Origin: Aggregatilineales bacterium
Lineage (GTDB): Bacteria > Chloroflexota > Anaerolineae > Aggregatilineales > UBA2796
NCBI GenBank assembly: GCA_038239365.1
Contig: JBBSEU010000001.1
Coordinates: 9,688 to 73,687, forward strand
Direction: 5' to 3'
DNA length: 64,000 nt
In this document: piece after piece, positions 13,990-34,388 of the stretch
Numbering within the stretch: position 1 is the stretch's first letter
How the letters are laid out: the number at the start of each line of letters is the position of its first letter
Translations under genes and position numbers: made by a program
Notes under the pieces: generated by a model
The model's input: the letters and a program-made list of their open reading frames with translations, nothing else
Databases searched by the model: none
What the model was told of the DNA's origin: nothing

Positions 13990-14067
13990 TAGTGTTTGCG
14001 GTGATGCGCCTGCCGATGGGCAGCACAAACCGCGTTCTCCTTTCGTACAGATAACGGTAGTTAATTG

Positions 14068-16288: not shown

Positions 16289-17829
16289 CGTGCAGAGTTC
16301 ATTTCAAGGCTTGCGGTCTGCACGATTGGCGGCAGGGCGTTCGATGCAGCCGATGGCCTTATATCCACATGAACCAGGCGGGTGATTAGCCCGGCAATAC
16401 GTTCAGCCGTTTTGCCATCAACGAGGCCGCAGTCAGTGGCCGCCAGCTTTTCGCGTTGGTGCTGATCGCGTGTCCGATCCGCCACATAAGCGGTGACTTC
16501 GGTGACGAGTTGATCCATATTTTGTGCCAGCCGCACGCCGCCACTTTCGATGATCGGCGCGTAAAAGTCTGTTTCATAGGCCATGTGGCAAAAACGATCC
16601 TCTTTGCTGCCCGCTTCTAATGCAAATCCCACACAAACGGCGGGTGTGCCCACTGCCGCCGCATCAAGGCTCATGGTTGACCACATGTTGAGGCAAACAT
16701 CAGCATAGCGCAGACTGTTAACAAGCAATGCCTGTTCTTCGGCCTTGCTGAAATGCCAACTGCGCGTGGTCGGCTGGCTAACCACGAGGTTAGGCGCGTT
16801 CATCAGTTTTCCAGCCCACCGTTGATAATTGTCCTGGGGGTGAAGCCGGGTAACGATCATGTGGTTGCACAATTTCAGTGAACGTTTGCAACGCTGCGCG
16901 AATTCTGCGATCAAATCGGCCTCTGTCGGCGTTTGATGAAATGAATTGGCCGCATAGAGAACGTAACGAGTTCCCGGCGGCAAACCCAGCCGAGTGAGCG
17001 TTTCCTCGCGTGTCCAGCGAAATTCATCGCGCCCATGAAAGTCAAATTGTGGTGCCCCGGTGATGTGTACACGAGACTTAGCAACCTGGGGATGAAAGGT
17101 CAGCAGTTGATTTTGCATACGTTGATTCCAGACTGAGAAATCATCGCAGGGCGCAATTTGTGGCCGACTGGTGAGTGCATCAAAACTTTGGATACAGCCG
17201 AGCGTTGGAATACCCAGATCGCGGGCAGCCATAATATACGCTTCTTCAGCCCAGATAACGCAGCTTGTGGCGACAACCAGCGATGGACGCAATTGTTTCA
17301 GTTGTTCTCGCGCCTGCTCAAAATTCCATTGTTGGTACTTGGAATGTTGCAACGCCTCGTTTTGCCAGCCAAAGAAAGGATCGTGGCTGCCTACAATAGA
17401 AAGCGCCTGAGCCGCCTGATTCCGTATCTTTTCCCAGAGCGAAACATTGCGAAAATACCACCAGCGGGTGACCCGATCATTATTCAGGTGATAGCGCCGG
17501 AAGAAAGAAGCCCGCTGGATGGCACCCAACGTGGCGGCCCCGCGCTGCTGTCTCACCAGGGGTGGTGCGGTTAACACAGACCACCCTTCCACACCATCAT
17601 AGTCCTGATGTTCTAAAGGGTTAACCTTCGTATTCCGAAAAGCCGGAAGATAATTTTCCATCGTTTCGGGCGTTCCAATGAGCAAATGCGAACGGATGCC
17701 GTGTTGCCGTAAAAGTCGGGCTACTCCGGTATGCACCATATTTCGGATACCGAGATGTACCGGGCACAGGAATACCACAGGGCCAAGTGCTTTTGCATCC
17801 GTAGTAGTCGGTAGAGATTGAGAGTGCAT
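16285..17829 (-). CDS. Uncharacterised 514 aa protein, possibly a GT-B-like transferase
   Basis: Long ATG-initiated ORF, translationally coupled on both sides inside the glycan operon. No family motif I can name with confidence. C-terminal half (VLYAANSF...VTRLHPQD...MWSTMSLDAAAVGTPAVCVGF) resembles the nucleotide-sugar-binding half of GT-B/capsule transferases. Confidence 0.55.
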   Translation of the reverse strand: MHSQSLPTTTDAKALGPVVFLCPVHLGIRNMVHTGVARLLRQHGIRSHLLIGTPETMENYLPAFRNTKVNPLEHQDYDGVEGWSVLTAPPLVRQQRGAATLGAIQRASFFRRYHLNNDRVTRWWYFRNVSLWEKIRNQAAQALSIVGSHDPFFGWQNEALQHSKYQQWNFEQAREQLKQLRPSLVVATSCVIWAEEAYIMAARDLGIPTLGCIQSFDALTSRPQIAPCDDFSVWNQRMQNQLLTFHPQVAKSRVHITGAPQFDFHGRDEFRWTREETLTRLGLPPGTRYVLYAANSFHQTPTEADLIAEFAQRCKRSLKLCNHMIVTRLHPQDNYQRWAGKLMNAPNLVVSQPTTRSWHFSKAEEQALLVNSLRYADVCLNMWSTMSLDAAAVGTPAVCVGFALEAGSKEDRFCHMAYETDFYAPIIESGGVRLAQNMDQLVTEVTAYVADRTRDQHQREKLAATDCGLVDGKTAERIAGLITRLVHVDIRPSAASNALPPIVQTASLEMNSAR

Positions 17830-17843
17830 TTATCTTTTTCCTA

Positions 17844-19133
17844 TCAAAAAGAATGAGTAGAACGGGATGATGGTGACAGTGTATTCAGCTGTTGATAAGC
17901 GGCCTGTCCCAACTCGATTTGCCGGAGCGCAGCATCCAGTAATATCGGACGGATTTGGTCGGCATGAGTCCAGGCATTCTCCATTGCTGTGCGTAAAGAC
18001 TGTGCCCAATCTGCATCGCTTAGAAGGATCATTTCGCAACCTTCCCCAAATTGATCGCGCAGCCCGACAAATTTATCGACGTAGTATTGGGATTGCGCGA
18101 GGCAGATCGTTGGAATGCCCTGTGAGAGTGCGAATACGGCGGCATGGTAGGCACCCGTAACAACAATGCGGCAGCGGCCTGCCAGTTCAATCGCCTGTGT
18201 CGGGCGTGTGATGGTCAGGCCGTCCGTTACAGAATTTTCGTAGCCCATCAAAAGACTTTGAATATGGCACGGATCATCTACCCCCACGTGAAGCGCGATG
18301 GGAATTGGGATCAGCGGCGCTTGATGCGTCCTGGCGAACTCATGCAAAATCGGGCGCAGCTTCTCAATCATGGTCAGGCCGATCTCCGCGTAAGCTGCCA
18401 CCCGCAGGTTAATGCCGACGCCATTGGAAAGCGTCGATGGGTGGGCATTATAGGCCAGTTCAATCGCATCATCGCCAGTCGTCACGATGCGTTCAGACGG
18501 GACACCCAGAGCCTCGAGCAAGGGGCGGGCAGTCACTTGTTCGCGGATCGCAATCAGGTTCACATGAGGCAGCACAGCACTGACTCTAGCGCGTAATTGA
18601 GGGTCGTCCATGGGGCCAATGCCCTGACCAAACAAGGCAGTCGGTATTCCCCGGCGGATCGCCATGTCGAGTGTTTCCAGCACCAGATATGTCCAACTCT
18701 TTGCGGAGTCGGTGAAGCCCCCTGTTCCACTGACCAATAGCCAGTCAGCATTTTTCAGGGTATCCAGAAACGGGCGTGGATCACCTTGAGGGTTTCGCAG
18801 CCGCGCTTTCAGGCAAATGGCCGACTCGACCAGAAAAGGCTGTGTGCGCTCTATCTGACGTTTGAGCACGCCCAACTGATGCGAACGACGGGGCGGTAAA
18901 CGATTATGTACAGCGCCTAGCAGGTAGTCATCGGCCAACCAGCTATAACGGCTTAGTTCGTGGAGCGGCGTGGCTTCGGGGCAGTGCTTGAGCAGAGTTT
19001 CTGGCACGCGCGTCAATACTTTCAGATTGGCTTGCGGCCACATGATACACAGCCGGTGCAGCATCACCTGAAGCATTGCCAGATCGCCTAAATTATCGCA
19101 ATTTGAATTATCGGAGTCAATCAAAATTTGCAT
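17844..19133 (-). CDS. Polysaccharide pyruvyl transferase family protein (CsaB/WcaK-like)
   Basis: ATG start. N-terminal NLGDLAML and C-terminal IVVTGAYHAAVFALSQGIPTICLAQSQYYVDKF match the PS_pyruv_trans pattern as I recall it. Confidence 0.7.
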   Translation of the reverse strand: MQILIDSDNSNCDNLGDLAMLQVMLHRLCIMWPQANLKVLTRVPETLLKHCPEATPLHELSRYSWLADDYLLGAVHNRLPPRRSHQLGVLKRQIERTQPFLVESAICLKARLRNPQGDPRPFLDTLKNADWLLVSGTGGFTDSAKSWTYLVLETLDMAIRRGIPTALFGQGIGPMDDPQLRARVSAVLPHVNLIAIREQVTARPLLEALGVPSERIVTTGDDAIELAYNAHPSTLSNGVGINLRVAAYAEIGLTMIEKLRPILHEFARTHQAPLIPIPIALHVGVDDPCHIQSLLMGYENSVTDGLTITRPTQAIELAGRCRIVVTGAYHAAVFALSQGIPTICLAQSQYYVDKFVGLRDQFGEGCEMILLSDADWAQSLRTAMENAWTHADQIRPILLDAALRQIELGQAAYQQLNTLSPSSRSTHSF

Positions 19134-19154: not shown

Positions 19155-20222
19155 TCAACTTTTGGCGATATGCTCCCAGCTAAGCGGCGTGCCGCGCGGG
19201 AGGTCGCGTGTGGCCTGGCAACCCAGGATTGAATGCAGATACTTCGGCGGCAAGCCATTGCCCGGACGGATCGAGCGAACATTCGCTGACGTGAAGACCT
19301 CGCCTGCTTTGAGATCAGCCACCACGAACAATGAACGGCGGAAAATGCCGCTTTTCCGCTCTTCCTCGCCAACTTCATAGTGAACCGTGCCGAGTGCTTT
19401 CTCAGCCGTGCGGATCGCTTGAACCATCTGCTTGAACTCATCCGGTTCAAGGGAAAAGGTGCTGTCCGGCCCAGGAATGGAACGTGACAGGGTGAAATGT
19501 TTCTCAACGATGCACGCACCCAGCGCCACCGCCGCGACGGGCACCGTCGTACCCAGAGTGTGATCCGACAGGCCAATTGGCACACCAAAGGTCTGGCTCA
19601 GGTGCGGGATCGTGTTCAAGTTCATTTCTTCGGGTGGTGAGGGATAAGCACTGGTACATTTAAGGAGTGCCAGTTGCGTCGCCCCGCCTTCGGACGCTGC
19701 GCTGACGGCATCTTGAATCTCTGCCAGATTTGCCATGCCTGTCGAGATGATCATCGGCTTGCCCGTTCGAGCGATGTACTGGATCAAGGGCAAATCGATC
19801 ATCTCAAAGGACGCCACTTTGTAAAACGCGACATTGAGCGATTCCAGGAAATCGACAGCCGTTTCATCGAACGGTGTTGAGAAAAAATCCAGCCCACACG
19901 ACTCGGCCACTGCCTTAAGTTTGGGGTGCCACTCCCAGGGGGTGTACGCTTCACCATACAGATCGTACAGGTTGCGGCCTTCCCAGAGCGACCCGGCACC
20001 GATCTGGAAATATTCGTTATCGCAATCAATAGTGAGCGTGTCCGGTGTGTAGGTCTGTAGCTTTACCGCATCGGCACCCGTTTCTTTGATGGCATGAATG
20101 ATCCGCACGGCTTCATCGAAATCCTGGTTGTGGTTCGCCGACATCTCGGCAATGATGTACACCGGTTCACTGGGTCCGATCTTTCGGCCATTGATCGTCA
20201 AATGAGTCGATAACGTGTTCAT
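19155..20222 (-). CDS. pseI: Pseudaminic acid synthase-type nonulosonic acid synthase (NeuB family, SAF C-terminal domain)
   Basis: IIAEMSANHNQDFDEAVRIIHAIKETGADAVKLQTYTPDTLT, GLSDHTLG, C-terminal SAF-like VVADLKAGEVFTSANVRSIRPGNGL. ATGA overlap with the upstream gene. Confidence 0.85.
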   Translation of the reverse strand: MNTLSTHLTINGRKIGPSEPVYIIAEMSANHNQDFDEAVRIIHAIKETGADAVKLQTYTPDTLTIDCDNEYFQIGAGSLWEGRNLYDLYGEAYTPWEWHPKLKAVAESCGLDFFSTPFDETAVDFLESLNVAFYKVASFEMIDLPLIQYIARTGKPMIISTGMANLAEIQDAVSAASEGGATQLALLKCTSAYPSPPEEMNLNTIPHLSQTFGVPIGLSDHTLGTTVPVAAVALGACIVEKHFTLSRSIPGPDSTFSLEPDEFKQMVQAIRTAEKALGTVHYEVGEEERKSGIFRRSLFVVADLKAGEVFTSANVRSIRPGNGLPPKYLHSILGCQATRDLPRGTPLSWEHIAKS

Positions 20223-22369
20223 AAAGCACTCCGGGTGTATTCGACCAATCCATGTTGGCGCAGCACATCAATTGTTTGTTTGGCCGCGTCGAAGGTAATG
20301 CCCAATGTGCTGGCGATCTGGGCAATGGTGCGCGTACCATCAATCAGGAACATGATGTCGAACAGGGCTTTGTTGCCTGCCGGATTGGTGTAGGCGTCAA
20401 TGTGGATGCCGTAACGGGAAGCGAATACTTCGCCCTGAAAATGATTGAGCGGGATGAAGTTATTTTCGAGTGTGTCGATCATGCCCAGCACCAGATCGCG
20501 CGAGTCCTCAAGCCGCCGGATTGAGGTGTACTCCGGCGTATCGAAGCTCGAATGATATTCACGGTACGGCCATTCGGGTGAAGACGGCGGCAAAACGCGC
20601 GAAATGGAGAGCATCGGTACGCGCACGCCAGGGCCGTTGAATTGGCGCTCGTCGTTGCCGATCACGGTTCGGAAGGCACCTGACCAGCTATGAAAATCGC
20701 GCTGTTTCATCGCCAGTGTGAAGCATTCATCAAGCTCTGTCTGACCATCAAAGGAAAGCTGTAAAGCGTGTGGGTATTGCAGCCCCAACATCTCCAGGAA
20801 CAGCCCGCCCTTCATCTTTGGGATGAGCGCCTCGTGGTGACTCAGATAGGCAACGGAGCCAATCGTTTCTGGCACAATCAGAAAACGATAAGTGTAGTAC
20901 GGCTTCTCCCGCTGCAGCAGCGCCCGCATCACCTCCATACCGACAACGACGCCGCTCAGGTCATCGTTGACCATTGCCGGATGGCACAGATGGGCACACA
21001 GGATAATGTTCTGATCGGTTTGGCCGGGCACAACCACTTCGCCAACTTTTAGATTGCCATAGCTGAATGTCGTTCGGATCACGACGCGGTAGCGATCCGC
21101 AGTGAGTGAGTCCTTAAGCCGTTTTGAGCAGCACAACCCCCAATCCCGTTCGTAATACTTGAACTGAAACGGGATCGCATCCGCGATCAATGGATGGACA
21201 TGCAGGTGGTTAAACAACTCCTGGCGTGATACTTCGCCTTCGTAAGGCAGTGAATAGGACACCACATGCAGCGGATTATCGGCATAGGAGAAGATGCGCT
21301 GGCCGTCGAGCGTTTCCAGATAGGCTTCGTAACACGTCCATTTTTCAGGAACGATCCAGCTCCAACTTTCTGTGCCGGTGGGGTAATTTAGAATGGTCAT
21401 CGGAAGCTGCGTCGCCAGTGCGTTCAAAGCATCGTCATAGCCTTGCGAAACGATCTGACGCGGCAGTTTCCAAAGCGCATCGATCATTTGCGTCATGCTG
21501 GCCTTTTCAGGAAGATGAACTTCATGTGTTGGTTCAGCCACTCGTGCCTGTTCCAATGCAATGGGATCGCCGGCTGGCCCTTTGGCGGTAAACCAACGAT
21601 CCGATTCAATGGCGGCACTCACGAAGTCGAAATAGGGTTGACTGTCCACACCCCAGATTTCGCCACAGCCAACCTGGGCAACCTTACAGATATGCTCACG
21701 ACTGGCGCTTTGTTCCAGGCGGCTGCCGTCCGGGAAGCCATTCTCGGCCATAATGCGGACGTTATACAGCCAGCCCGTTTTTCGCTGCACACCGTTGTTA
21801 CGAATAGTGCCTGTGAACAGTTTTTGGTAGCGGAAGGGCACGCCGATCATTTCTTCAACATGGTGTTGGAAGGTCGCTTCATGCAGGCCAACGCCGATCA
21901 TACAGATTTTGCCGTTGGCCTGCTTTAAGCGGTCATGGATGCTGCCCGAACCGAAGCACGTCGCAGGTACATCCGTAAGCAGTTCCGCTGCCCGCGGCCC
22001 CAAACCAGCCACTGAATGGATCGGATCAGTCGAGCGCACAACGCCCGGCTGCGCGCGAAAGTATTCCAGAAATTCAACCGATGTACTCCAGGGGCCGCCC
22101 TGTGTCGGTGTGTTCTGAACGTCAAATATCGCCTGCTGACAAAACGAAAAAGTGTACGTTGGGATCAGGATCGTGCCTGCATCGGTCAGCACCTTCTTGA
22201 GAGCAGCCAGCACCAGATCGCTGCGCTGCTTCACGTCTGAAACGTCTTTGGCCTGTCCCAGCGTATCCAAACAGAGGTGAAAATAAACGGTGTCACCCGC
22301 TTGAAGCCCTGCTTTATGCAGTCCGTCGATCAGGTCAGACTGAGTGTAGTGCCATTCGGTGGTTGTCAT
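20219..22369 (-). CDS. Fusion protein: AAC(3)-like N-acyltransferase domain + DUF2172/DUF4910 aminopeptidase-like domain + C-terminal winged helix
   Basis: Residues 1-280: GDTVYFHLCLDTLG...AGTILIPTYTFSF...RSTDPIHSVAGLGPRA...ICMIGVGLHEATFQHHVEE (aminoglycoside 3-N-acetyltransferase fold pattern). Residues ~290-716: LWKLPRQIVSQGYDDAL...NPLHVVSYSLPY...IPFQFKYYERDWGLCCS...LCHPAMVNDDLSG...YRFLIVPETIGSVAYLS (DUF4910-type). Confidence 0.8.
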   Translation of the reverse strand: MTTTEWHYTQSDLIDGLHKAGLQAGDTVYFHLCLDTLGQAKDVSDVKQRSDLVLAALKKVLTDAGTILIPTYTFSFCQQAIFDVQNTPTQGGPWSTSVEFLEYFRAQPGVVRSTDPIHSVAGLGPRAAELLTDVPATCFGSGSIHDRLKQANGKICMIGVGLHEATFQHHVEEMIGVPFRYQKLFTGTIRNNGVQRKTGWLYNVRIMAENGFPDGSRLEQSASREHICKVAQVGCGEIWGVDSQPYFDFVSAAIESDRWFTAKGPAGDPIALEQARVAEPTHEVHLPEKASMTQMIDALWKLPRQIVSQGYDDALNALATQLPMTILNYPTGTESWSWIVPEKWTCYEAYLETLDGQRIFSYADNPLHVVSYSLPYEGEVSRQELFNHLHVHPLIADAIPFQFKYYERDWGLCCSKRLKDSLTADRYRVVIRTTFSYGNLKVGEVVVPGQTDQNIILCAHLCHPAMVNDDLSGVVVGMEVMRALLQREKPYYTYRFLIVPETIGSVAYLSHHEALIPKMKGGLFLEMLGLQYPHALQLSFDGQTELDECFTLAMKQRDFHSWSGAFRTVIGNDERQFNGPGVRVPMLSISRVLPPSSPEWPYREYHSSFDTPEYTSIRRLEDSRDLVLGMIDTLENNFIPLNHFQGEVFASRYGIHIDAYTNPAGNKALFDIMFLIDGTRTIAQIASTLGITFDAAKQTIDVLRQHGLVEYTRSAL

Positions 22370-23136
22370 TGCTGCTCCTGATCTTCGTAGGATAGATTGA
22401 GACGCAGGTATATTTTGCGTCCGTCGTGGCGAAAATAGGCTGAGGCGTAAGGCGGATAGGTACGCGCCCGCAAAAGATTGATCAGTTCACGCCCGGTGTA
22501 GGTTCGATCCAGGTCAATCTCATCAATCTGCTCAACATCTTTCACGCGATGTGTCGTGCCCGCGCTGGCTGGCTGCGAAAGACGAACCGCGCGCCCAGCG
22601 CGAAGCAGCGGCCAACTTTGCTTAAACAGGTCAACCGAGGCCTGCTCCAACTTTTTGTAAAGACTTTCGCCTGTATCGACTGGTTCAACCGGAACGATCT
22701 GCTGGGCAATAATATCGCCTGTATCAACGCCCACATCCATGTAGTGCAGTGTCACACCCGCCGGAGTGTCTTCGATGATGCTCCAAACGTTGGGGTACGC
22801 GCCCCGGTTATAGGGCAAATAGGCCGGATGGAGATTGATACAGGGCATCAATTCCAGAATGGGTTGACGCAGGATGTAGCCAAAAAAGACGGAGACGCCA
22901 ATCTCTGCGCCAAGTGCCCGTAACGCCTCAATCTGTGCCGGGTCGTTGAGCCTTGAGCCATCAAAGACCTGTGAGGGTGGTAACGCCGCGCTGGACAGGA
23001 TTTCGTCGCCATACTTGCGCTTCTGATCGGGATGCAGAACCAGACCCACAATCTCGTCGCCTTCGGCCTGTTGGGTTCGCAACCATTCAATGATCTGCCA
23101 GGCTGCCCAATTGTTACCAAAAAACAGGATACGCAT
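22366..23136 (-). CDS. Formyltransferase-fold protein (Fmt/sugar N-formyltransferase-like)
   Basis: MRILFFGNNWAAWQIIEWL, INLHPAYLPYNRGAYPNVW (His loop), TLHYMDVGVDTGDIIAQ (Asp). ATGA overlaps on both sides. Confidence 0.8.
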   Translation of the reverse strand: MRILFFGNNWAAWQIIEWLRTQQAEGDEIVGLVLHPDQKRKYGDEILSSAALPPSQVFDGSRLNDPAQIEALRALGAEIGVSVFFGYILRQPILELMPCINLHPAYLPYNRGAYPNVWSIIEDTPAGVTLHYMDVGVDTGDIIAQQIVPVEPVDTGESLYKKLEQASVDLFKQSWPLLRAGRAVRLSQPASAGTTHRVKDVEQIDEIDLDRTYTGRELINLLRARTYPPYASAYFRHDGRKIYLRLNLSYEDQEQQ

Positions 23137-23142
23137 CGCCCC

Positions 23143-24192
23143 TCAGCATTCGCTTTCATTCGATAATAACAGCCGCGCGACTCGTTCAACGCCCAGACCA
23201 TCCACAAACGACTGTGCTTTCTGGCTCATCTCACGACGTAGCTCCGTGTCGACGATCAGATGGTGTACTTGTTCGGCCAACGCATCTGCCGTTAAACTGG
23301 CGAACCAGCCCGCATCCAACGCTACGCCAGCATCGAGCAGCCCTTTGGCGATCTTCACCTGATTATCAGCCAGCGTGATTGTCACCATCGGCACGCCAAA
23401 AAAAGCCAGTTCCCAGCAGGTGCCGCCCGCCGCCGAAATAGCAACTTCTGCCCAGTTCATCAAAGTTGGCATATCTGTCACGGCAACCAGCAGTTCAATC
23501 GCAATGGGTGAAGCATTGATCGCCTGCGAGAGGCTGTCCTGATAGCGATTTGCCGCCCCAATCACGACTTTGCTTTGTAGCCCAGGATGACGTTTGGACA
23601 ACTCAGCCAGCGCCTCGATCACGTAGAGCGTCGTATTGTCAGGATCGCTGCCGCCCAACGTGATCAGGATACGCCGGGGATCAGCGGCAATGCTGCGCGT
23701 TCGGTCCGGCCAATGCCGAAATTCACGGCGCAAAAGGGCATAATGCGCCCCAAGCAGCAGTTGAGTAGTGGGCGCACGCTGTTGATAAAAAGCCTGATCC
23801 GCATAGATTTGTGGGTTCAGCACAAAATCCGCATCATAGCGTTTGGCGTGCCCATAATCATCAATGAACAAGACCGATAGACCATGTGCTTTCAGTGCTT
23901 TTTGATAATTGGCATCGAAGTCATAGCCATCCACAACGATCCATTTTGCACCAAACTGCTTTGCCAGATCAGCGGTTTGATCGGCATCTTGGGTAGTGTC
24001 TGAAGGCAGGCAGTCTACCCGCATTTTTTCGGTGACGAGGCGCTCAACCAGCGCGGGCGTATCCGTGATCAAGACGAACAACACGTCCCCGCCCATATCC
24101 TGATACGCCTGCGCGATTGCCAGACAGCGCATTAAATGCCCTGTACCCAACCGGGCGTTTGCGTTACATCGAATCAGCAGGTGATTTACCAT
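23143..24192 (-). CDS. pseG: UDP-2,4-diacetamido-2,4,6-trideoxy-beta-L-altropyranose hydrolase-like (PseG)
   Basis: N-terminal LIRCNANARLGTGHLMRCLAIAQAY (the RxDxxxxxGxGHxxR pattern of PseG) and a GT-B C-terminal half with GGTCWELAFFGVPMV. Confidence 0.75.
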   Translation of the reverse strand: MVNHLLIRCNANARLGTGHLMRCLAIAQAYQDMGGDVLFVLITDTPALVERLVTEKMRVDCLPSDTTQDADQTADLAKQFGAKWIVVDGYDFDANYQKALKAHGLSVLFIDDYGHAKRYDADFVLNPQIYADQAFYQQRAPTTQLLLGAHYALLRREFRHWPDRTRSIAADPRRILITLGGSDPDNTTLYVIEALAELSKRHPGLQSKVVIGAANRYQDSLSQAINASPIAIELLVAVTDMPTLMNWAEVAISAAGGTCWELAFFGVPMVTITLADNQVKIAKGLLDAGVALDAGWFASLTADALAEQVHHLIVDTELRREMSQKAQSFVDGLGVERVARLLLSNESEC

Positions 24193-24965
24193 GCCGAAAA
24201 ACCACCGTCAACCATCAGGGACTCTCCGGTAATGTAGGACGCTTCGTCAGAAGCCAGAAACGCGACTGCATTTGCAATTTCGTCAGGCTGCGCCATGCGA
24301 TTTAGCATCGTTTTGTTGCTGTAGTTAGTCACGAACTCGTCCGATTGACGTTGGGACGAACGTACTCCCCCGGCCACTACCGCATTCACCCGCACACCTT
24401 GTTCGCCCCATCTGGCAGCCAGCGTGCGCGTCAGTGACAGAAGTGCCGCTTTTGCCGCGCTGTACTGTGGTGGGGTGGGTGCCATCCCTGCTGGATAGAT
24501 GCGTTGATCAACGGCATTCACGGCGTAAATCGAAGACAAAATAACAAAGCTGGCGGCCTGACCAGCCAACTGTTTGATCAGTTCTCGCGCACAGATGAAG
24601 TGTCCGGCAACGTCCACGTTATACAAACGGCTGAAACTTGCGTGATCAAGCTCATCAAAGGGTGTTGCCAGCCCATCGCGCAGTGAGGCATTGGCGATCA
24701 ATATTGTCGGTATACCAACCGTCTCGGCCAAATGATTCAGGGCGTTGGCAATGCTTTGTTCATCGCCCAATTCGAGGGGAATGCCGATCAACTTAGCAGT
24801 GCCGGGGACAGACTGATCGGCTGCCCAACTTTCGGCTTTTTCGGCAGTGCGTGATGTGATCACTACCGTTGTGCCCTCAGCCAGCAAGCGCCGAACAACT
24901 GCACTGCCGATCAAGCCACTGCCACCCGTAACTAAGGCCACTCGACCTGCTAAGCCCTTCATCAT
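24186..24965 (-). CDS. Classical short-chain dehydrogenase/reductase
   Basis: VALVTGGSGLIGSAV (TGxxxGxG), NASL, YSAAKAAL (YxxxK). Confidence 0.9.
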   Translation of the reverse strand: MMKGLAGRVALVTGGSGLIGSAVVRRLLAEGTTVVITSRTAEKAESWAADQSVPGTAKLIGIPLELGDEQSIANALNHLAETVGIPTILIANASLRDGLATPFDELDHASFSRLYNVDVAGHFICARELIKQLAGQAASFVILSSIYAVNAVDQRIYPAGMAPTPPQYSAAKAALLSLTRTLAARWGEQGVRVNAVVAGGVRSSQRQSDEFVTNYSNKTMLNRMAQPDEIANAVAFLASDEASYITGESLMVDGGFSAW

Positions 24966-25720
24966 TGTTTCTCTCCGCTATTGGGAAAAGGGCTTTTGTG
25001 AATAGGCTCAAGCGGCGAATGACCATCACGGGCGTGCAGGCCGCGTACCAGCAGTTCGGCCAGTTCAAACTCCTCAGCGCGATCAATGTCGATTCCCCGG
25101 TTGCCATCCATCGCGGCCACATAGAACGGATCGCCATAAAAGGCGTGCTGCCGGATGAAATCTGGCACGCGCACCCACCAAACCGCACCCGTCGGGCACA
25201 TCGGCACACCAAGCTGTTGACTTGGCACAAGGTAGTTACCAAAAACCCAGCGCCCCTGCTGTGCTTCGTTTGCTGTGAGCGCCCAGTGTGGATAAACACC
25301 ACGATAGGGCACAACCGAAATCTGGCAGGGGCGTTCTTCCTGCTCGAAGCTACGGTAGAGCGCCACAACATCTTCACTGCGACGTAACGGACAGTTCGGC
25401 ATCAACTGACACAATGCCGTTGGCTCGACGCCGCGCGCTTTGAGGGTATTCAGGACATGTTCGGCAACGTCCACAAGTGTCGCCTCGTCGGTTGCCAGTG
25501 CCGCCGGGCGAGGCAGGTATTCAGCGCCATACCACTCTGCGATCTCACCCGTAGCCGGATCATCTGTTGAAACGATAATATGTGAGAAAAGATTGCTATT
25601 CTGCGCTGCGACAATTGCGTAGGCCAGCGCCGGATGACCAAAAAAGGGGCGTGTGTTTTTGCCGGGCAAACGTTTGGAGCCGCCGCGTGCAGGGATCAGT
25701 GCAACCCGTTCGTGCGTCAC
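24962..25720 (-). CDS. Acylneuraminate cytidylyltransferase family protein (paralog 2)
   Basis: ORF track 24962..25783. GTG at 25720 lies just after the upstream TAA (25722..25724) and gives VTHERVALIPARGGSKRLPGKN, the canonical N-terminus. The ATG at 25783 would overlap the upstream gene by 62 nt. Confidence 0.75.
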   Translation of the reverse strand: MTHERVALIPARGGSKRLPGKNTRPFFGHPALAYAIVAAQNSNLFSHIIVSTDDPATGEIAEWYGAEYLPRPAALATDEATLVDVAEHVLNTLKARGVEPTALCQLMPNCPLRRSEDVVALYRSFEQEERPCQISVVPYRGVYPHWALTANEAQQGRWVFGNYLVPSQQLGVPMCPTGAVWWVRVPDFIRQHAFYGDPFYVAAMDGNRGIDIDRAEEFELAELLVRGLHARDGHSPLEPIHKSPFPNSGEKQ

Positions 25721-25721
25721 G

Positions 25722-26417
25722 TTACGCGCCTTGCCGTGATAACAAAAATGCGGCCAGATCAAAATCGAACGCTTCCGCAACATGCACGCTGCGTTCTTCG
25801 GGAGTTTGATAAACGGCTAAATGCGGGCCAAAAAAATTACGGTGTTCAAGCAGGGGGTCAGCGCGCCCAATTTTGATCGAGCCGTTTGGACGGAAGACTG
25901 GTGGCAGGAGCGGCCTCTCGATCATGTACTGATCGCCAAAATACATCGCCCAATCACTATCCTGATCACCGTTTTGTTGCACTGCCCAATGAAAGTAGTG
26001 GGGATCAATGGGCGTCACAGAAACCAGGTAATCGGCCTTACTGAGGCAAAACATCTCCCATGATCCGCAAATATCCTGGGCATTTCGCAGGGGTGAGGAT
26101 GGCTGCAGGCAGATGATCGCGTCGTAGGTTTCTCCGGCGGTCTGAAGCACCTGGAACACTTCGATGCAGACATCGGTTGCGCTAACCAGATCACCAGCCA
26201 ATTCGGGTGGGCGAAGATGGAAACGCGCGCCAAATCGTTCGGCAATCGCGCCGATTTCTGTGTCTTCCGTCGAAACGTAGACCGTTTCAAACAAACCGCT
26301 GTGCAGCGCCGCTTCGATGGAATAGGCAAGCATCGGTTTGCCAGCAAGGGGTTTGATGTTCTTGAGCGCCAGACGTTTTGAGCCGCGTCTCGCCGGGATC
26401 ACACACAATGGTTTCAC
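25722..26417 (-). CDS. Acylneuraminate cytidylyltransferase family protein (paralog 1, PseF-like)
   Basis: GTG start. MKPLCVIPARRGSKRLALKNIKPLAGKPMLAYSIEAALHSGLFETVYVSTED matches the CMP-nonulosonate synthetase N-terminal pattern. Confidence 0.8.
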   Translation of the reverse strand: MKPLCVIPARRGSKRLALKNIKPLAGKPMLAYSIEAALHSGLFETVYVSTEDTEIGAIAERFGARFHLRPPELAGDLVSATDVCIEVFQVLQTAGETYDAIICLQPSSPLRNAQDICGSWEMFCLSKADYLVSVTPIDPHYFHWAVQQNGDQDSDWAMYFGDQYMIERPLLPPVFRPNGSIKIGRADPLLEHRNFFGPHLAVYQTPEERSVHVAEAFDFDLAAFLLSRQGA

Positions 26418-26436
26418 GTTAACTTTACCTACTCGC

Positions 26437-27414
26437 TTAAGCGGATACTAAAATTGGATACGTTTTCGCGGTCAGAGCGATCTGCAGCGCCGCCAAACCG
26501 TGCTGCAAGTTGCTAAAGGTTGGCGTGCCGCTCTCGATGTGTTCCATAAAGTAGCGTAGTTCATCGACGTACATCTGATTCACCGTCCAATCCGAAGGCT
26601 GCTCAATGAGTGTAGGGCTGCCTGTCGCCGCATAGCAGTAAATTTTGCCCTCGCTAAAACGCCAGTAGAGGCTTCCTTCGCTGCCGATTATTTCACAGCC
26701 GCGATGATAATCACGCTGAATAAAATTCAAGTGGACGCTCGATAACACACCGGAGTCATGGCGCAGCAGCACTTCCAGCAATCCCTCGACTTCCAAACCG
26801 ATGCTTTCAGCAGGCAGCTTGACCGCGTATTGCACCACTGCCGGGCCAAAGTACCAGAGTGCCAGATCGATCTCGTGGATACAGTCCAGGATTGCGCCGC
26901 CACCCTGAACTGCGGAGGCGCTGTAACTCTGCCGATAATCGACACCGGGACGCCACGTCGGCAAATAGGAGCCGGTATAGATGCGGGCAGCGATGACCCG
27001 CCCGATCTGCCCTTGATCGAGCAGTGCTTTCACCTTTGCAGGGCCGGGATGAAAGCGCATGTTGCAGCCCACCATCGAGATCAAATTGCGTTCGTCAACC
27101 TCTGAACACAACGTTTCTACATCTGCCAGTGAATGGGACAGCGGTTTTTCGATAAACAAATGACAATTATAACGGGCGGCGGTCAGTGCCAGAGCGATGT
27201 GTTGATTGGAAGGGGCGGTCACCAGCACAACCTCGGGTTTTTGCGCCCAAACGTCTTCGAGCGCCGCACAACCGACTGCGCCACTTTCAACCTGAGCCTG
27301 ATCACGCGCGGCGGCGGACGGATCAAAGGCCAGAAGATCAGCGTAGCCCAATGCGCGCAGATTTCGCAGATGACGCCGACCAATTGAGCCACAACCCAGC
27401 ACAGCAATTTGCAT
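26437..27414 (-). CDS. Gfo/Idh/MocA-family NAD(P)-dependent oxidoreductase
   Basis: MQIAVLGCGSIGRRHLRNLRALGY Rossmann start and EKPL motif (LFIEKPLSH). Confidence 0.85.
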   Translation of the reverse strand: MQIAVLGCGSIGRRHLRNLRALGYADLLAFDPSAAARDQAQVESGAVGCAALEDVWAQKPEVVLVTAPSNQHIALALTAARYNCHLFIEKPLSHSLADVETLCSEVDERNLISMVGCNMRFHPGPAKVKALLDQGQIGRVIAARIYTGSYLPTWRPGVDYRQSYSASAVQGGGAILDCIHEIDLALWYFGPAVVQYAVKLPAESIGLEVEGLLEVLLRHDSGVLSSVHLNFIQRDYHRGCEIIGSEGSLYWRFSEGKIYCYAATGSPTLIEQPSDWTVNQMYVDELRYFMEHIESGTPTFSNLQHGLAALQIALTAKTYPILVSA

Positions 27415-27448
27415 TGCGGACAGCCTTTACGCTTTATCGAGTCAGATG

Positions 27449-28657
27449 TTACGCGCTTGTGCCGATGGGTGAACCGACCTGCAATACTTTATGGAGCGCC
27501 TTGAGTACATCATCGACATCCGCATCGGTCATACGTGGGAAGATAGGCAGCGAAACGATCCGCTCATAGGCCGCCTCTGCTACCGGGCACAAACCGGGGC
27601 GTGTGCCGAAACGCTTCTGATAAAAGGGGTGAAGATGCACAGGAATGTAGTGGACATTGACCCCGATCCCTTCCTTACGCAACGCCTGAAAGATCGCCAT
27701 GCGCGTTTGCTGAGCGGCTTCCAGGTCAAGACGGACGACGTACAAATGATAGGCGTGGGCAGCCTCCGGGCGCTTGCTGAGCGGCGCGATCATGGGCATT
27801 TCAGCAAAGGCCGCATCGTAACACTGTGCGATGCTTTGGCGTCGGCTGACCCAATCGGGCAATTTGCGGAGTTGACTGATCCCCAACGCACATTGCAAAT
27901 CGCTCAGCCGATAGTTGTAGCCAAGATCGACCATTTCATAGAACCATGATCCCTGGGCTTCTCGCTGGCGATGATCGCTGGTGATACCGTGATTGCGGAA
28001 AACACGCATCCGACGCGCCAGTTCTGGATCATCCGTCGTGATAACGCCGCCTTCACCCGTCGTGATATGCTTGACCGGATGGAGGCTGAACGTATTCAGA
28101 TCGGCCAGTGTTCCAACCGGATGCCCTGCATAACGGCCACCGACAGCGTGGCAGGCATCGGCCACAATTGCCAGATCATGTTTCGCGGCGATAGCGCGCA
28201 AATTATCGTAATCACAGGGCTGCCCGGCATAGTCCACCGCGACGATGGCGCGGGTGCGTTCGGTGATGCGGGCTTCGACCTGTGCCGGATCGATAAGCAG
28301 TGTGTCTGGATCAACGTCACAAAACACAGGCGTTCCACCCTGGTAGACAACGCAGTTCGCGCTGGCCGCAAAGGTCATCGCCGGAACAATGACTTCATCG
28401 CCCGGAACAATATCAAGTGCATACATCGCGGCGTGCAAGGCGGCAGTCCCGTTCGAGACGGCGACTGCCTCAGCGGCACCCGTGAATGCGGCGAAGGCCT
28501 GCTCAAATTCGCCAACTTTTGGACCCGTGGTTAGCCAATCGGAACGAAGGACATCAATCACCGCATTGATGTCATCGTCATCGATCCACTGACGACCATA
28601 GGGCAGCAGCGTCTCACGAACCGGCTTATCGCTGGACAAGGGTGGGTTGTAATTCAT
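27449..28657 (-). CDS. pseC: UDP-4-amino-4,6-dideoxy-N-acetyl-beta-L-altrosamine transaminase-like (PseC, DegT family)
   Basis: ORF track 27449..28669 (TTG), ATG at 28657. LLPYGRQWIDDDDINAVIDVLRSDWLTTGPKVGEFE and FSLHPVKHITTGEGGVITT. Confidence 0.85.
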   Translation of the reverse strand: MNYNPPLSSDKPVRETLLPYGRQWIDDDDINAVIDVLRSDWLTTGPKVGEFEQAFAAFTGAAEAVAVSNGTAALHAAMYALDIVPGDEVIVPAMTFAASANCVVYQGGTPVFCDVDPDTLLIDPAQVEARITERTRAIVAVDYAGQPCDYDNLRAIAAKHDLAIVADACHAVGGRYAGHPVGTLADLNTFSLHPVKHITTGEGGVITTDDPELARRMRVFRNHGITSDHRQREAQGSWFYEMVDLGYNYRLSDLQCALGISQLRKLPDWVSRRQSIAQCYDAAFAEMPMIAPLSKRPEAAHAYHLYVVRLDLEAAQQTRMAIFQALRKEGIGVNVHYIPVHLHPFYQKRFGTRPGLCPVAEAAYERIVSLPIFPRMTDADVDDVLKALHKVLQVGSPIGTSA

Positions 28658-29660
28658 GCTGATCTTCAATCAACTCTTGCAGTTCGGAAATGGCTAGCCA
28701 TTCCGTGTTAGCGTCACTGGTGTACTGAAAATTTTCTGGCAGCGCACGGCCTTCGCTCCAGTTTTCGCTGAACCACCAGGGGTACAACGGTTTGACGATA
28801 TACATGTTGTCCAGTTCCAGGGTATGGCGTGCCTCGTCTTCGGAAATCAGTATTTCGTGCAGCTTTTCGCCGGGGCGAATGCCGATCATGTCAATCTGGC
28901 AGTCAGGAGCCACTGCAGTGACGACATCTATCAGGCTCATACTCGGAATTTTGGGGATGAAAACTTCGCCGCCCTGCATTTGCTCAAGGCAGTTTGTCAC
29001 AAACCGTACTACCTGATCGAGCGTCAACCAAAAGCGTGTCATGCGTTTATCAGTCACGCTGACCTTACCGGTTTTGCGCTGCTTCAAGAAAAGCGGAATG
29101 ACGCTGCCACGACTGCCAACAACGTTACCATAACGCACACAACTGAAGCGTGTCGGGCCTTCGCCACTGTAGGCATTGGCCTGTACAAATAGTTTTTCGG
29201 CCACGAGCTTGGTGGCCCCATATAAATTGGTGGGACTCACGGCCTTATCGGTGCTGATCGCCATGACGCGCTTGACTTTCATATCGAGTGCCGCTTCGAT
29301 CACATTCTTAGCACCCATGATATTCGTCATCACGGCTTCAATGGGATTGTATTCACAGGCGGGCACATGCTTGAGCGCCGCCGCATGGATGACAATATCG
29401 ACGCCGTTCATGGCACGACGAAGGCGGTCAACATCGCGCACATCGCCAATGAAGTAGCGCATTGGCGATCCCTCAGTATCGGGAAAGACCTGACGCATTT
29501 CATGCTGCTTAAGTTCATCCCGACTAAAGATAATCAGGCGTTTGGGATGATAGGTATTCAGAATAAACTCGGTGAGTTTTTTACCCATCGAGCCAGAGCC
29601 GCCAGTAATAAGAACGGATTGCTGTTTCCAATCAATCGGTTCGAGGTTCGAGGTTGACAT
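28626..29660 (-). CDS. pseB: UDP-N-acetylglucosamine 4,6-dehydratase (inverting)-like (PseB/FlaA1)
   Basis: ORF track 28626..29912. ATG at 29660 gives MSTSNLEPIDWKQQSVLITGGSGSMGKK and removes an 84 aa W/R-rich extension that would overlap the ABC gene. YGATKLVAEK (YxxxK), HEILISEDE. Confidence 0.9.
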   Translation of the reverse strand: MSTSNLEPIDWKQQSVLITGGSGSMGKKLTEFILNTYHPKRLIIFSRDELKQHEMRQVFPDTEGSPMRYFIGDVRDVDRLRRAMNGVDIVIHAAALKHVPACEYNPIEAVMTNIMGAKNVIEAALDMKVKRVMAISTDKAVSPTNLYGATKLVAEKLFVQANAYSGEGPTRFSCVRYGNVVGSRGSVIPLFLKQRKTGKVSVTDKRMTRFWLTLDQVVRFVTNCLEQMQGGEVFIPKIPSMSLIDVVTAVAPDCQIDMIGIRPGEKLHEILISEDEARHTLELDNMYIVKPLYPWWFSENWSEGRALPENFQYTSDANTEWLAISELQELIEDQHELQPTLVQR

Positions 29661-29688: not shown

Positions 29689-31587
29689 TTATGGTAATGT
29701 CTCAAGTTGAACAGTGTTCGATGCTTTAACTTCCATGGGGAGGTTATCCAGGATTTGATGACTCCACAGGGACTGGTAGGTCTTGCAAGTTTGTTGCAAT
29801 TCCTGATGGGTGCCGAACCCCACCACCTGCCCATTTTCCAGCACCAGAATACGATCCGCGCGCCGAAGTGCAGAGAAACGATGGGTGACAACGAAGGTAG
29901 TACGACCTTCAATCAGATGCTCCAAAGCGATCTGGACAGAATGCTCCGAAACCGCGTCCAGGTTACTGGTTGCTTCGTCCAGGAAAAGAATTGGCGCGTT
30001 TTTGAGTAAGGCAGCCGCGATACAGATACGCTGTTTTTGCCCAACCGATAGGCCGCGCCCTTCCTCACCGATGCCGAGCATCGTCTCGTAGCCTTTTTCC
30101 ATTTGCATGATCTCATCGTGGATGTTCGCCGCTTTGGCCGCCTCAATGACTTGTTCCATTGAAGCAGTGGGCCGCCCCATCCGAATATTATCAACGACGC
30201 TATCGACAAACAGGATCGGCTCCTGTAGGACAATGCTGCACTGATCCATCAAATCGGTGTAGCGTATGTCACGCAGATCAACACCATCAAACAAAATTTT
30301 GCCGCCAGTATTTTCATAGAAGCGCAGCAGCAGAGAGATGAAGGTCGATTTTCCCGCGCCAGATGGACCCACAATACCAATCGTTTCGCCCCGATGAAAG
30401 ACGGCGGAAACATTCTTTAGAACAGTTTGATCATTGTAGGCGAAGGAGACGTTCTGGAATTCAATCGTCTTGGGGCCTTGCTTCAACGAAACCGGATTGG
30501 ATCGATCCTGAAGGGCGGTAGGCATCGCCATCACCCGCTGCACATGTTCGATATTCGGGATTGCTCCGCGCAGTGTCGAGTATGTTTGTAGCAGACTCAC
30601 AATCGGTGAATAGACAGCCAGGACCGCAATTAACAGGCTGAGCAGTGATTGCCAGTCAAGACGCCCGGCGGCAATATCCTGCCCGCCAAAGGCCAGCACC
30701 ATAACCAGACCAATCGCCGAGACAACCTCTAGCATGAGACGCGCCAATCCGCGATTACGCGCCTGTTGTGTCACCAACTGATAAAGCGTTTCCGCAATAT
30801 CACGGGCTTTGGCAAGAATGCGTTCTTCGGCGCGATTAACCTTTACCGCGCGGATGCCCTGTGAGACTTGAAGAAAGCTATCATGCCAACTGGCAAGCCC
30901 TATGCGGCGTTTGCGGGCGGCCAGTGTAATACGCTGCCCAAACCAGCTAGCGGGCAAAGCGATGAGTGGCACCGCTACGAAACCAATAAAAGCCAGCTTG
31001 GGACTGATAAGAACCGCCACAACTGCCAGCGAAGCCAGCCGTGTGCTGTACAGGATCGCTCGCCCGGCTTCTTCGGTTGCCCAGCGCAGCCCCTGAATAT
31101 CCTGGTAGGAACCCATCACCATATCGCCCTGGTTGCTCTTTTCAAAATAGCGCACCGGCAGCGTCAGCACTTTTGCCAGCAGCCGCCACATCGACTCAAT
31201 TTCGATGCGGTGTCCAAGTTGAACCGAAGTCAATTCGGCAATGAAGGTACCAATCGACTGAAGCAGGCTGAACACCAGGATGATCCCGGAAGCAACCAGT
31301 AGAGTGGTAATTGAACCGCCCTCTGAGGTGCTGAATAACAGAATCGCCTGCCGAAGCCCCCATACTAGCAGCGCCTGAAAAACACCCTGCAGCGCAGTTC
31401 CCAGCAGGAACATGGCCGTTAATCGGGGGTAGCGCAGCATAGATCGAAAACCCATCCATAGGGCAGAGAAGAAGCTCGTTGTTGAGTAGATATTCAAAGA
31501 TGAGACCCTTCCGATCAAGCCGTGTATTGCAGATAAAGAACGGAGATTCTTAAAGCTCCGCAGTACCGACACACTTGAACAGTGCAT
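29689..31587 (-). CDS. ABC exporter, fused permease/ATPase (MsbA/PglK-like)
   Basis: Six-TM N-terminal half. Walker A GPSGAGKST, signature LSVGQKQR, Walker B ILFLDEATSNLD. Start uncertain (ATG at 31587, in-frame Met codons at 31455 and 31440). Confidence 0.85.
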   Translation of the reverse strand: MHCSSVSVLRSFKNLRSLSAIHGLIGRVSSLNIYSTTSFFSALWMGFRSMLRYPRLTAMFLLGTALQGVFQALLVWGLRQAILLFSTSEGGSITTLLVASGIILVFSLLQSIGTFIAELTSVQLGHRIEIESMWRLLAKVLTLPVRYFEKSNQGDMVMGSYQDIQGLRWATEEAGRAILYSTRLASLAVVAVLISPKLAFIGFVAVPLIALPASWFGQRITLAARKRRIGLASWHDSFLQVSQGIRAVKVNRAEERILAKARDIAETLYQLVTQQARNRGLARLMLEVVSAIGLVMVLAFGGQDIAAGRLDWQSLLSLLIAVLAVYSPIVSLLQTYSTLRGAIPNIEHVQRVMAMPTALQDRSNPVSLKQGPKTIEFQNVSFAYNDQTVLKNVSAVFHRGETIGIVGPSGAGKSTFISLLLRFYENTGGKILFDGVDLRDIRYTDLMDQCSIVLQEPILFVDSVVDNIRMGRPTASMEQVIEAAKAANIHDEIMQMEKGYETMLGIGEEGRGLSVGQKQRICIAAALLKNAPILFLDEATSNLDAVSEHSVQIALEHLIEGRTTFVVTHRFSALRRADRILVLENGQVVGFGTHQELQQTCKTYQSLWSHQILDNLPMEVKASNTVQLETLP

Positions 31588-31645
31588 CGTGATGGTTGAG
31601 ACGACAAGTTGTGGAACAACCTACAAGTTACGGACACGACGAACG

Positions 31646-32191
31646 TCAATGAGCCGGAGCAATGTCTTTCACATTGATTTCGGCACGGACTGAGCGGCCC
31701 AGCAGTTCTAACAAAATGTGGACACGTTCAGAGCCAGTCAGATAGCGATTGAACAAACCCACATAGCCCGCAAAAGCACCGCCGACGATCATTACCGAGT
31801 CGCCGGGCTGCAATGGTTTTTCAGCTTCGGCGCTCAGCGAAGGCTGAGAAGCAAGCTGGCTTAAAAAATGCTGCAACTGCACAATGACATTTTCGGGAAC
31901 AATCGCGGGCTGGCCGTCGAACTGAACCAATCCTATCGAACCTGGTGCCCAGCGCAAGCGATCAACATCGACAGTTCCCAGGTTAAGCTGGATAAACAGA
32001 TAACCTGGAAAATACGGACGAACTCTGGCAGCGCGCGGATTCACCGGCTTAACATGAAGGACGGGCGCGAAAACGTGAATGTCTTCTGAAGACAGATAGT
32101 CGCTCAAGTGCCTTTCGTGATGCGGCTTACTCTGTAGAGCGTACCAGCTACGCTCTACGACTGCCGGAGAGGTATCCATATGACTGTCCAT
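31646..32191 (-). CDS. Specialised NusG paralog (RfaH/UpxY/LoaP-like transcription antiterminator)
   Basis: NGN domain SWYALQSKPHHERHLSDYL...RPYFPGYLFIQ...GSIGLVQFDGQPAIVPENVI and KOW-like GDSVMIVGGAFAGYVGLF. Embedded in a polysaccharide operon. Confidence 0.8.
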   Translation of the reverse strand: MDSHMDTSPAVVERSWYALQSKPHHERHLSDYLSSEDIHVFAPVLHVKPVNPRAARVRPYFPGYLFIQLNLGTVDVDRLRWAPGSIGLVQFDGQPAIVPENVIVQLQHFLSQLASQPSLSAEAEKPLQPGDSVMIVGGAFAGYVGLFNRYLTGSERVHILLELLGRSVRAEINVKDIAPAH

Positions 32192-32194
32192 TCC

Positions 32195-34165: not shown

Positions 34166-34388
34166 CAAGGCTAAATCACCTCATACCTATACGTTTCGTG
34201 GACGATGCAAGCGACTTGACAATTTCAATGATGGCTGGATGGAAAACGATTTGTCAATTTTAGATAGGTGTCAATGTGTTCAAGAGAAATTTGAATTCAT
34301 CGACAAATAGTCTTAAAGTCACACCTCAGCTTAGAGAACCAGAGAGACTAAAGCAACTATACTATTATTGTTTTGAAAGATCAAGAGC

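Follow-up and report, generated by a model that had tools for sequence, protein, structure and literature searches.

How can an operon for pseudaminic acid (Pse) do without PseH, the N-acetyltransferase that acts on the 4-amino sugar before PseG, and what do the two acyl-transfer genes lying between its pseG and pseI contribute? We pursued this question in a 64,000-nucleotide stretch, hereafter the window, from an Aggregatilineales bacterium (GenBank assembly GCA_038239365.1, contig JBBSEU010000001.1, positions 9,688 to 73,687 of the forward strand). The contig measures 84 kb, and the assembly has 461 contigs and is 92% complete. One long operon spans positions 34168 to 12118 of the window on the minus strand, and its gene calls were scored with Pfam and NCBIfam profiles, for which we quote the equivalog cut-off of each model. 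The operon opens with a WbpM-like dehydratase, a NusG paralog, an ATP-binding cassette (ABC) exporter, PseB, PseC, and a Gfo/Idh/MocA oxidoreductase. It continues with two PseF-like cytidylyltransferases, a short-chain dehydrogenase/reductase (SDR), PseG, a formyltransferase (FT), a 716-aa fusion protein, and PseI, and ends with a pyruvyl-transferase-family protein, a 514-aa protein, GT4 and GT2 glycosyltransferases, a second DegT aminotransferase (DegT2), and a PglC-like phosphoglycosyl transferase. In the genome, pseB, pseG, pseI, and the genes for FT and the fusion occur as one copy each. With somewhat more confidence than doubt, we predict that the operon makes an N-modified pseudaminic acid, activated with CMP, for a surface glycan that the ABC exporter would carry out of the cell.

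An earlier reading of the window (the original prediction) had named the core genes, noted the lack of PseH, and placed FT and the fusion jointly in its stead. The named genes lie where it had put them, all on the minus strand, and PseB, PseC, PseG, and PseI score over their equivalog cut-offs. The synthase is a true PseI by this measure, which answers the possible objection that it might be of legionaminic or neuraminic type, and the ATGA overlaps between FT and the fusion and between the fusion and pseI are present in the sequence. The missing PseH also holds up. Pfam and NCBIfam scans found no GNAT domain in any open reading frame (ORF) from 12.8 to 34.2 kb, the 84-kb contig gave no match to the PseH model at a threshold as loose as E<=10, and in the whole genome the best match to this model reached 52 bits against a cut-off of 93, on a different contig. 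Judged by its genes, this is a genuine pseudaminic acid operon that lacks PseH.

The PseH step could nevertheless be supplied by a divergent GNAT, or by another acetyltransferase, whose gene lies elsewhere in the genome or on DNA missing from the assembly, with FT and the fusion adding minor glycoforms. The incompleteness of the genome leaves room for this, generic GNATs of the genome reach as much as 52 bits with the PseH model, and GNATs in related Pse loci likewise fall short of its cut-off (36 bits or unmatched), so that the cut-off misses real cases. One of these lies in a Victivallales locus (L072:3287-4960), which encodes a 557-aa PseG-GNAT fusion whose PseG part scores 216 bits and whose GNAT part scores only 36 bits on the PseH model, indicating that some working candidates are missed. 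However, there is no GNAT on the 84-kb contig, the GNATs of the two related loci that carry one (L072 and L081) have no homolog in this genome, and many GNAT-free operons with FT show the FT route to be self-sufficient, making a hidden PseH very improbable.

FT is a 256-aa protein with a Formyl_trans_N domain (PF00551, 82 bits) and a C-terminal N_formyltrans_C dimerisation domain. The original prediction had proposed checking its Asn/His/Asp catalytic triad, and an alignment with four orthologs shows Asn101, His103, and Asp138 to be invariant. Searches of the PDB with the single sequence and with a profile matched 4nv1 (4e-31), which we take to be Francisella WbtJ, as well as PseJ (6ci2/6ci4, 3e-29), Rv3404c, dTDP-Qui4N formyltransferases, and VioF. 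Thus, the nearest solved relatives, PseJ included, formylate nucleotide-linked 4-amino-4,6-dideoxy sugars.

To place FT in its genomic context, we mapped the window proteins onto 80 metagenome loci that carry FT homologs of 50-65% identity, limiting neighbor counts to loci whose contig leaves room (57 upstream, 60 downstream). In 49 of 57 loci the gene immediately upstream of the FT homolog is pseG, and in 53 of 60 the one immediately downstream is pseI. The fusion directly follows FT in 2 of 60 loci, or in four when contigs ending just past FT are counted, and any DUF4910 match is found in only 7 of the 80. PseB, PseC, a cytidylyltransferase, PseG, FT, and PseI are all present in 19 loci, about six of which have the six genes contiguous, with no gap >350 nt. 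The additional ORFs in these six-gene loci are methyltransferases or class-III aminotransferases, never GNATs. FT therefore takes the PseH step without the fusion in operons where it stands alone between pseG and pseI, and it must act on the PseC product there, since this is the sole free amine. Such operons provide the strongest evidence that FT acts at the PseH step, which would give an N7-formyl group. We conclude that FT probably fills the PseH slot alone as a functional analogue of PseJ. The claim that the future N7 amino group is acylated is thereby upheld, with formylation most probable given the triad, the relatives, and the FT-only operons. The idea that FT and the AAC(3) gene jointly replace PseH is not, since FT homologs fill the slot alone in most related operons.

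As cited in PMC11040635, PseJ is the formyltransferase of a published route to Pse5Ac7Fo (Reimer et al. 2018, ACS Chem Biol 13:3161). On that account, PseJ of Anoxybacillus kamchatkensis (6ci2, 6ci4) resembles FT in being the formyltransferase of a Pse cluster in place of PseH. The two also have a common catalytic core (E 3e-29, residues 80-203). However, they align over this core only and are not full-length orthologs. The solved PseJ chains are 192-217 aa long, whereas FT adds an N_formyltrans_C domain typical of dTDP-Qui4N formyltransferases (4nv1, VioF, Rv3404c), and its best solved relative is 4nv1. FT is probably a lineage distinct from PseJ doing the same job. In the first step of the pathway we propose, FT would, in all likelihood, use N10-formyl-tetrahydrofolate to formylate UDP-4-amino-4,6-dideoxy-beta-L-AltNAc, the PseC product, taking the PseH step as PseJ does, and PseG and PseI would then yield Pse5Ac7Fo. 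The original prediction had inferred a non-standard nonulosonic acid, while noting that N-formyl and N-hydroxybutyryl pseudaminic acids are known in O-antigens. As PMC11040635 describes it, PseJ and the Pse5Ac7Fo route are already published, and the locus therefore shows no new pathway logic at N7; formyl-for-acetyl substitution is an already known kind of variant, here by another FT lineage.

We then turned to the fusion (20219..22369, 716 aa), in which Pfam recognizes an Antibiotic_NAT domain, a DUF4910/DUF2172/M28-like module, and a winged helix-turn-helix domain. Like AAC(3) acetyltransferases and FrbF (6mb4, 3sma), the N-terminal domain has the Antibiotic_NAT fold together with the His/Glu region that is conserved in that family. 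It differs from the AAC(3) acetyltransferases in its score of 72.7 bits on the NCBIfam AAC_3 model (NF033082), far under the resistance cut-off of 270, in its fusion to DUF4910, and in its sugar-operon setting; on these grounds we rejected a resistance-gene identity. In the AlphaFold model of the fusion (pLDDT 76), Foldseek aligns the AAC(3) half with AAC(3) enzymes at TM-scores of 0.72-0.78 and with FrbF at 0.71, and the DUF4910 half with 3k9t at 0.76; the latter also matches in sequence over residues 293-705 (E 1e-56). Across 17 homologs, there is no variation at His169 and Glu172 of the AAC(3) domain or at the predicted zinc ligands His463, Asp469, and His606.

3k9t is the structure of CA_C2195 of Clostridium acetobutylicum, a stand-alone protein that binds a single zinc through His189/Asp195/His324 and in which the catalytic Asp and Glu of M28 enzymes are missing (Das et al. 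2014, PMC4000134). The same study found its family in modified-carbohydrate neighborhoods, at times fused to amino-sugar N-acetyltransferases (PMC4000134). The window module is fused, unlike CA_C2195, and shares with it the three-domain build, the single-zinc His/Asp/His set, the replaced M28 Asp/Glu, and a nonulosonate-type neighborhood. Specifically, the zinc ligands of the two proteins correspond, and the M28 catalytic positions are Ala465 and Pro500 in the fusion, aligned with Ser191 and Pro225 of CA_C2195.

The fusion has more than 1700 homologs in the protein collection and occurs in more than 520 species genomes, from Acidobacteriota, Gemmatimonadota, Verrucomicrobiota, Planctomycetota, Desulfobacterota, and others. 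We sampled 80 loci centered on it (L009-L088) and recorded neighbors within 10 kb: a DegT aminotransferase in 59, a pyruvyl-transferase homolog in 50, and a NeuB-family synthase in 47. Most of these loci are of legionaminic type. The block PseG-FT-fusion-PseI recurs in L041, L043, L046, and L065 (53-66% identity), and two Pse loci hold the fusion without FT, one with a GNAT after PseG (L081) and the other with a PseG-GNAT fusion (L072). FT and the GNAT thus alternate while the fusion stays, indicating that the fusion is an add-on and not a substitute for PseH. We rejected it as a PseH replacement, given these GNAT-carrying loci and the FT-only operons, and the original assignment of the AAC(3)-like protein as a stand-in also conflicts with its presence in legionaminic-type loci. 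One of the latter, L011, encodes a PseF-like synthetase, a NeuB-type synthase, an Fmt/ArnA-like formyltransferase, PtmE-like and LegB-like proteins, LegC (473 bits against 420), and then the fusion. With one new amine, two N-acylating activities, and a hydrolase-like domain, L011 fits only the removal and replacement of an existing acyl group.

In our own-phylum sample of 301 genomes, which includes one order-level relative of the host, the DUF4910 module is present in 26 and fused in only three. Several of these genomes encode the two halves separately, the DUF4910 gene being immediately preceded by an AAC(3)-like one, near NeuB-type synthases and with no formyltransferase nearby. Sinorhizobium fredii strains make K-antigens of N-hydroxybutyryl pseudaminic acid. 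On the chromid of S. fredii SMH12 (L095:16372-34872), a complete set of rkp-3-like pseB/pseI/pseG/cytidylyltransferase/pseC genes is present, but the stand-alone DUF4910 gene is some 12 kb away and does not adjoin it, and we set this lead aside as weak.

The two families joined in the fusion have separate counterparts in Campylobacter. Cj1295 belongs to PIRSF015244 of the DUF2172 family (PMC3068675, PMC6321876) and is genetically required for 5-N-(2,3-di-O-methylglyceroyl)-Pse; in the proposal of Hitchen et al., cleavage of the 5-acetamido group by this protein makes way for a new acyl group (PMC3068675). The adjoining Cj1296/7 is annotated as an aminoglycoside N3'-acetyltransferase (PMC3025981), and the enzymes that place non-acetyl acyl groups on N5 were still unknown according to PMC11040635. 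We assigned both proteins to their families through Pfam, the PDB, and the papers. In C. jejuni NCTC 11168, the pair stands directly after pseB/pseC, whereas in the window it is fused in one 716-aa protein with the acyltransferase first. The window also differs in lacking PseH, in having a formyltransferase, and in lacking carrier-protein, FabH, and methyltransferase genes for a glyceroyl donor. Since its families are those of Cj1295 and Cj1296/7, the window protein is a natural fusion of a suspected N5-exchange pair. In the second step of the proposed pathway, which we judge to fall narrowly short of probable, the fusion would edit the other nitrogen: the single-zinc DUF4910 module would remove the 5-N-acetyl group and the AAC(3)-fold domain would re-acylate from a thioester. 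If the new group were 3-hydroxybutyryl, one candidate, the product would be a sugar of Pse5Hb7Fo type comparable to that of Pseudomonas aeruginosa O7/1244; Pse5(3-hydroxybutyryl)7Fo is known to occur in nature (PMC11040635).

Donor-type genes stand near the fusion in some loci. Directly upstream of it in a Desulfomonilaceae locus (L088:5833-11119) are two FabH-like ketosynthases and a FabG-like SDR, a set that suggests a locally made 3-hydroxyacyl donor. L072 encodes an AMP-ligase and an HMGL-like enzyme, and L086 an FkbH-like protein; given these differing genes, donors seem to vary between loci. The window SDR scores 121 bits on an acetoacetyl-CoA reductase model with a cut-off of 302, and we predict that it is either an ElaC-like ketoreductase or a FabG/PhaB-like reductase for a 3-hydroxyacyl donor.

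The roles of FT and the fusion could also be reversed, such that the AAC(3) domain acylates the PseC product at N7, while N5 is deacetylated by DUF4910 and formylated by FT, with a Pse5Fo7Ac-type sugar as the outcome. In keeping with this, the fusion directly follows a LegC/PseC-type aminotransferase in most of the 80 loci, 5-N-formyl-legionaminic acid occurs naturally in Halorubrum (PMC6137143), and the window holds no other candidate N7 acyltransferase. However, FT occupies the pseG-pseI slot of complete six-gene operons without the fusion or a GNAT, where only the 4-amino group is free, and its nearest characterized relatives act on nucleotide-linked 4-amino sugars. In addition, L072 and L081, with the fusion and a PseG-linked GNAT in place of FT, would then carry one N7 acylase too many and no enzyme to put an acyl group back on N5. 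We consider reversed roles quite improbable.

A further alternative arises from the second 4-amino-sugar branch of the operon, which comprises the WbpM-like dehydratase (a UDP-GlcNAc 4,6-dehydratase), DegT2, which is 42% identical to PseC, and the PglC-like protein. No N-acetyltransferase for this branch is found in the locus, and no NeuD/PglD-family protein scores over its cut-off in the genome. The fusion might therefore not act on Pse at all. Instead, it could supply the missing PglD-type activity by N-acylating a second sugar of bacillosamine or QuiNAc4N type, or it could modify the polymer, leaving Pse5Ac7Fo or an epimer as the nonulosonate. The commonest neighbor of the fusion, located downstream and often immediately so, is the pyruvyl-transferase homolog, from a family of polymer-level enzymes; pyruvyltransferases in DUF4910 operons were also remarked on by Das et al. 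2014 (PMC4000134). Against this, most fusion loci have one DegT-type gene within 10 kb, which is LegC- or PseC-like, and in five genomes the fusion sits within a pseG-pseI block with no WbpM/DegT2 pair nearby. The only genetic data for the family, those on Cj1295, concern the N5 substituent of Pse (PMC3068675), and a second-sugar or polymer role would leave the DUF4910 half without a role and the nonulosonate association of its family unexplained. We regard such a role as unlikely.

The remaining genes between pseC and pseG resemble, by analogy, the C8-epimerisation module ElaABC of Acinetobacter baumannii KL49. There, ElaA (Gfo/Idh/MocA, 323 aa, Lys91/His181), ElaB (a CMP-synthetase), and ElaC (an SDR) epimerise C8 of CMP-legionaminic acid, and 3ezy, 6ifd, and 6uh2 served as their search models (PMC13656337). 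The window has the same enzyme trio. Its Gfo enzyme (325 aa) carries Lys90 in an EKP motif and His180, corresponding to the ElaA residues, and matches 3ezy best in the PDB; synthetase paralog 1 matches NeuA and 6ifd; and the SDR, whose translation shows TGxxxGxG and YxxxK motifs, matches 6uh2 (1e-28). The top PDB matches of the trio thus include the ElaA/B/C search-model entries, a circumstantial link. The window differs in that ElaABC acts on legionaminic acid and in having two synthetase paralogs. Gfo orthologs of 53-60% identity also follow pseC in L041, L043, L065, L110, L111, and L160. Such a module can act on Pse, since EpaA/EpaB convert Pse to 8-epi-Pse (PMC12053666), although EpaA uses an aldo-keto reductase domain and not Gfo/Idh/MocA. 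A search of a phage collection with the window SDR and synthetase returned nothing relevant to EpaA/EpaB. In a third step, which is tentative and on which our doubts somewhat outweigh our confidence, the Gfo/Idh/MocA enzyme, a PseF-like synthetase, and the SDR would act as ElaA/B/C, oxidising and re-reducing one hydroxyl of the CMP-sugar (C8 in Ela) to give an epimer.

The interval 24962..26417, earlier described as cytidylyltransferases, does hold two paralogous PseF-like genes, with the qualification that both score under the PseF cut-off. They are 35% identical to each other, and PseF is the best model for both. The longest ORF of paralog 2 (24962-25783) shares 62 nt with paralog 1; position 25720, one base past the paralog 1 stop, has an in-frame GTG that suits the PseF model better and is probably the start. 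In related loci, the Gfo-synthetase pair is accompanied by a class-III aminotransferase in place of the SDR, and this pairing points to a shared keto intermediate that would be re-reduced or aminated. A module of an oxidoreductase (Gfo/Idh/MocA or aldo-keto reductase), a PseF-like cytidylyltransferase, and a class-III aminotransferase recurs in Pse-type loci across unrelated bacteria, as well as on a plasmid of Halorussus. Its composition seems suited to oxidation and then amination of a CMP-nonulosonate hydroxyl, which would give a tri-amino sugar, and we know of no description of such a module.

Downstream of pseI, the 514-aa protein has homologs in 17 of the 80 fusion loci. Its weak match is to the BFO_1060-family glycosyltransferases, so called after a gene of Tannerella forsythia, in keeping with a candidate role in nonulosonate transfer. 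At a similar position in L011 (13456-14892) lies a gene matching TIGR04396, 'surface carbohydrate biosynthesis protein'. The coordinates of all features are collected in Table 1.

Table 1. Operon features in the window, and related modules in other loci
Feature	Coordinates	Strand	Basis
WbpM-like dehydratase (32195-34168), NusG paralog, and ABC exporter, forming the operon head	29689..34168	-	Profile scans
pseB, UDP-GlcNAc 4,6-dehydratase (inverting)	28626..29660	-	TIGR03589, 488 bits (cut-off 408)
pseC, aminotransferase giving the UDP-4-amino sugar	27449..28657	-	TIGR03588, 486 bits (cut-off 424)
Gfo/Idh/MocA oxidoreductase, ElaA-like candidate	26437..27414	-	Pfam GFO_IDH_MocA
PseF-like CMP-nonulosonate synthetase, paralog 1	25722..26417	-	TIGR03584, 132 bits (under cut-off 206)
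PseF-like CMP-nonulosonate synthetase, paralog 2	24962..25720	-	TIGR03584, 141 bits (under cut-off 206)
Classical SDR	24186..24965	-	adh_short_C2
pseG, UDP-sugar hydrolase	23143..24192	-	TIGR03590, 226 bits (cut-off 154)
FT, predicted sugar 4-N-formyltransferase	22366..23136	-	Formyl_trans_N + N_formyltrans_C
Fusion, N-terminal AAC(3)-fold (Antibiotic_NAT) domain, residues ~1-270	21560..22369	-	PF02522, 114.6 bits
Fusion, C-terminal DUF4910/DUF2172/winged helix-turn-helix module, residues 293-716	20219..21493	-	Pfam, 208, 92, and 22 bits
pseI, pseudaminic acid synthase	19155..20222	-	TIGR03586, 506 bits (cut-off 340)
Polysaccharide pyruvyl-transferase-family protein	17844..19133	-	PF04230
514-aa protein, candidate nonulosonate transferase	16285..17829	-	Weak BFO_1060-family glycosyltransferase match, 44 bits (cut-off 200)
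DegT2, second DegT aminotransferase	12802-14028	-	Profile scans
PglC-like phosphoglycosyl transferase	12118-12798	-	Profile scans
Oxidoreductase-synthetase-aminotransferase modules	L065:4306-7384, L043:3056-7026, L081:2788-5809, L110:1998-5063, L111:2901-5945, L092:24277-27527		

Taken together, we view the fusion and the Ela-like block as add-on modules whose functions we infer. In its fullest form, our proposal would make the fusion a bifunctional N-acyl editor that, with FT and the Ela-like triad, leads to an undescribed Pse epimer bearing a 7-N-formyl group and a non-acetyl 5-N-acyl group; as a whole, this remains doubtful. Several observations weigh against our reading of the operon. Profile scans of the locus found no carrier protein, FabH, or obvious acyl-donor genes, and the identity of the new acyl group is therefore a guess. 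The DUF4910 module is without the M28 catalytic Asp and Glu, a lack that led Das et al. to doubt a classical amidase mechanism (PMC4000134). The second 4-amino-sugar branch may instead be the one that the AAC(3) domain serves, and the position of the fusion directly after LegC/PseC-type aminotransferases in most loci also fits a direct 4-amino-sugar role. FT is no strict PseJ ortholog, given its C-terminal dimerisation domain and core-only match, and a genome that is 92% complete leaves room for PseH on the missing DNA. Finally, the enzyme activities and the sugar product of this uncultured host are predicted from its genes.

The comparative data indicate that this FT lineage is a common, self-sufficient replacement for PseH among environmental bacteria. 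The main value of the locus is as a compact test case for the N5 acyl-exchange hypothesis: because it fuses the suspected N5-exchange pair and is free of the Campylobacter carrier-protein machinery, it offers a convenient candidate for a first biochemical test of DUF4910. N-acyl variation of pseudaminic and legionaminic acids shapes the recognition of bacterial surfaces by phages, antibodies, and immune systems. If the editing proposed here is correct, it would provide the first biochemical function for the DUF4910 family and would explain the origin of N5-modified pseudaminic and legionaminic acids.

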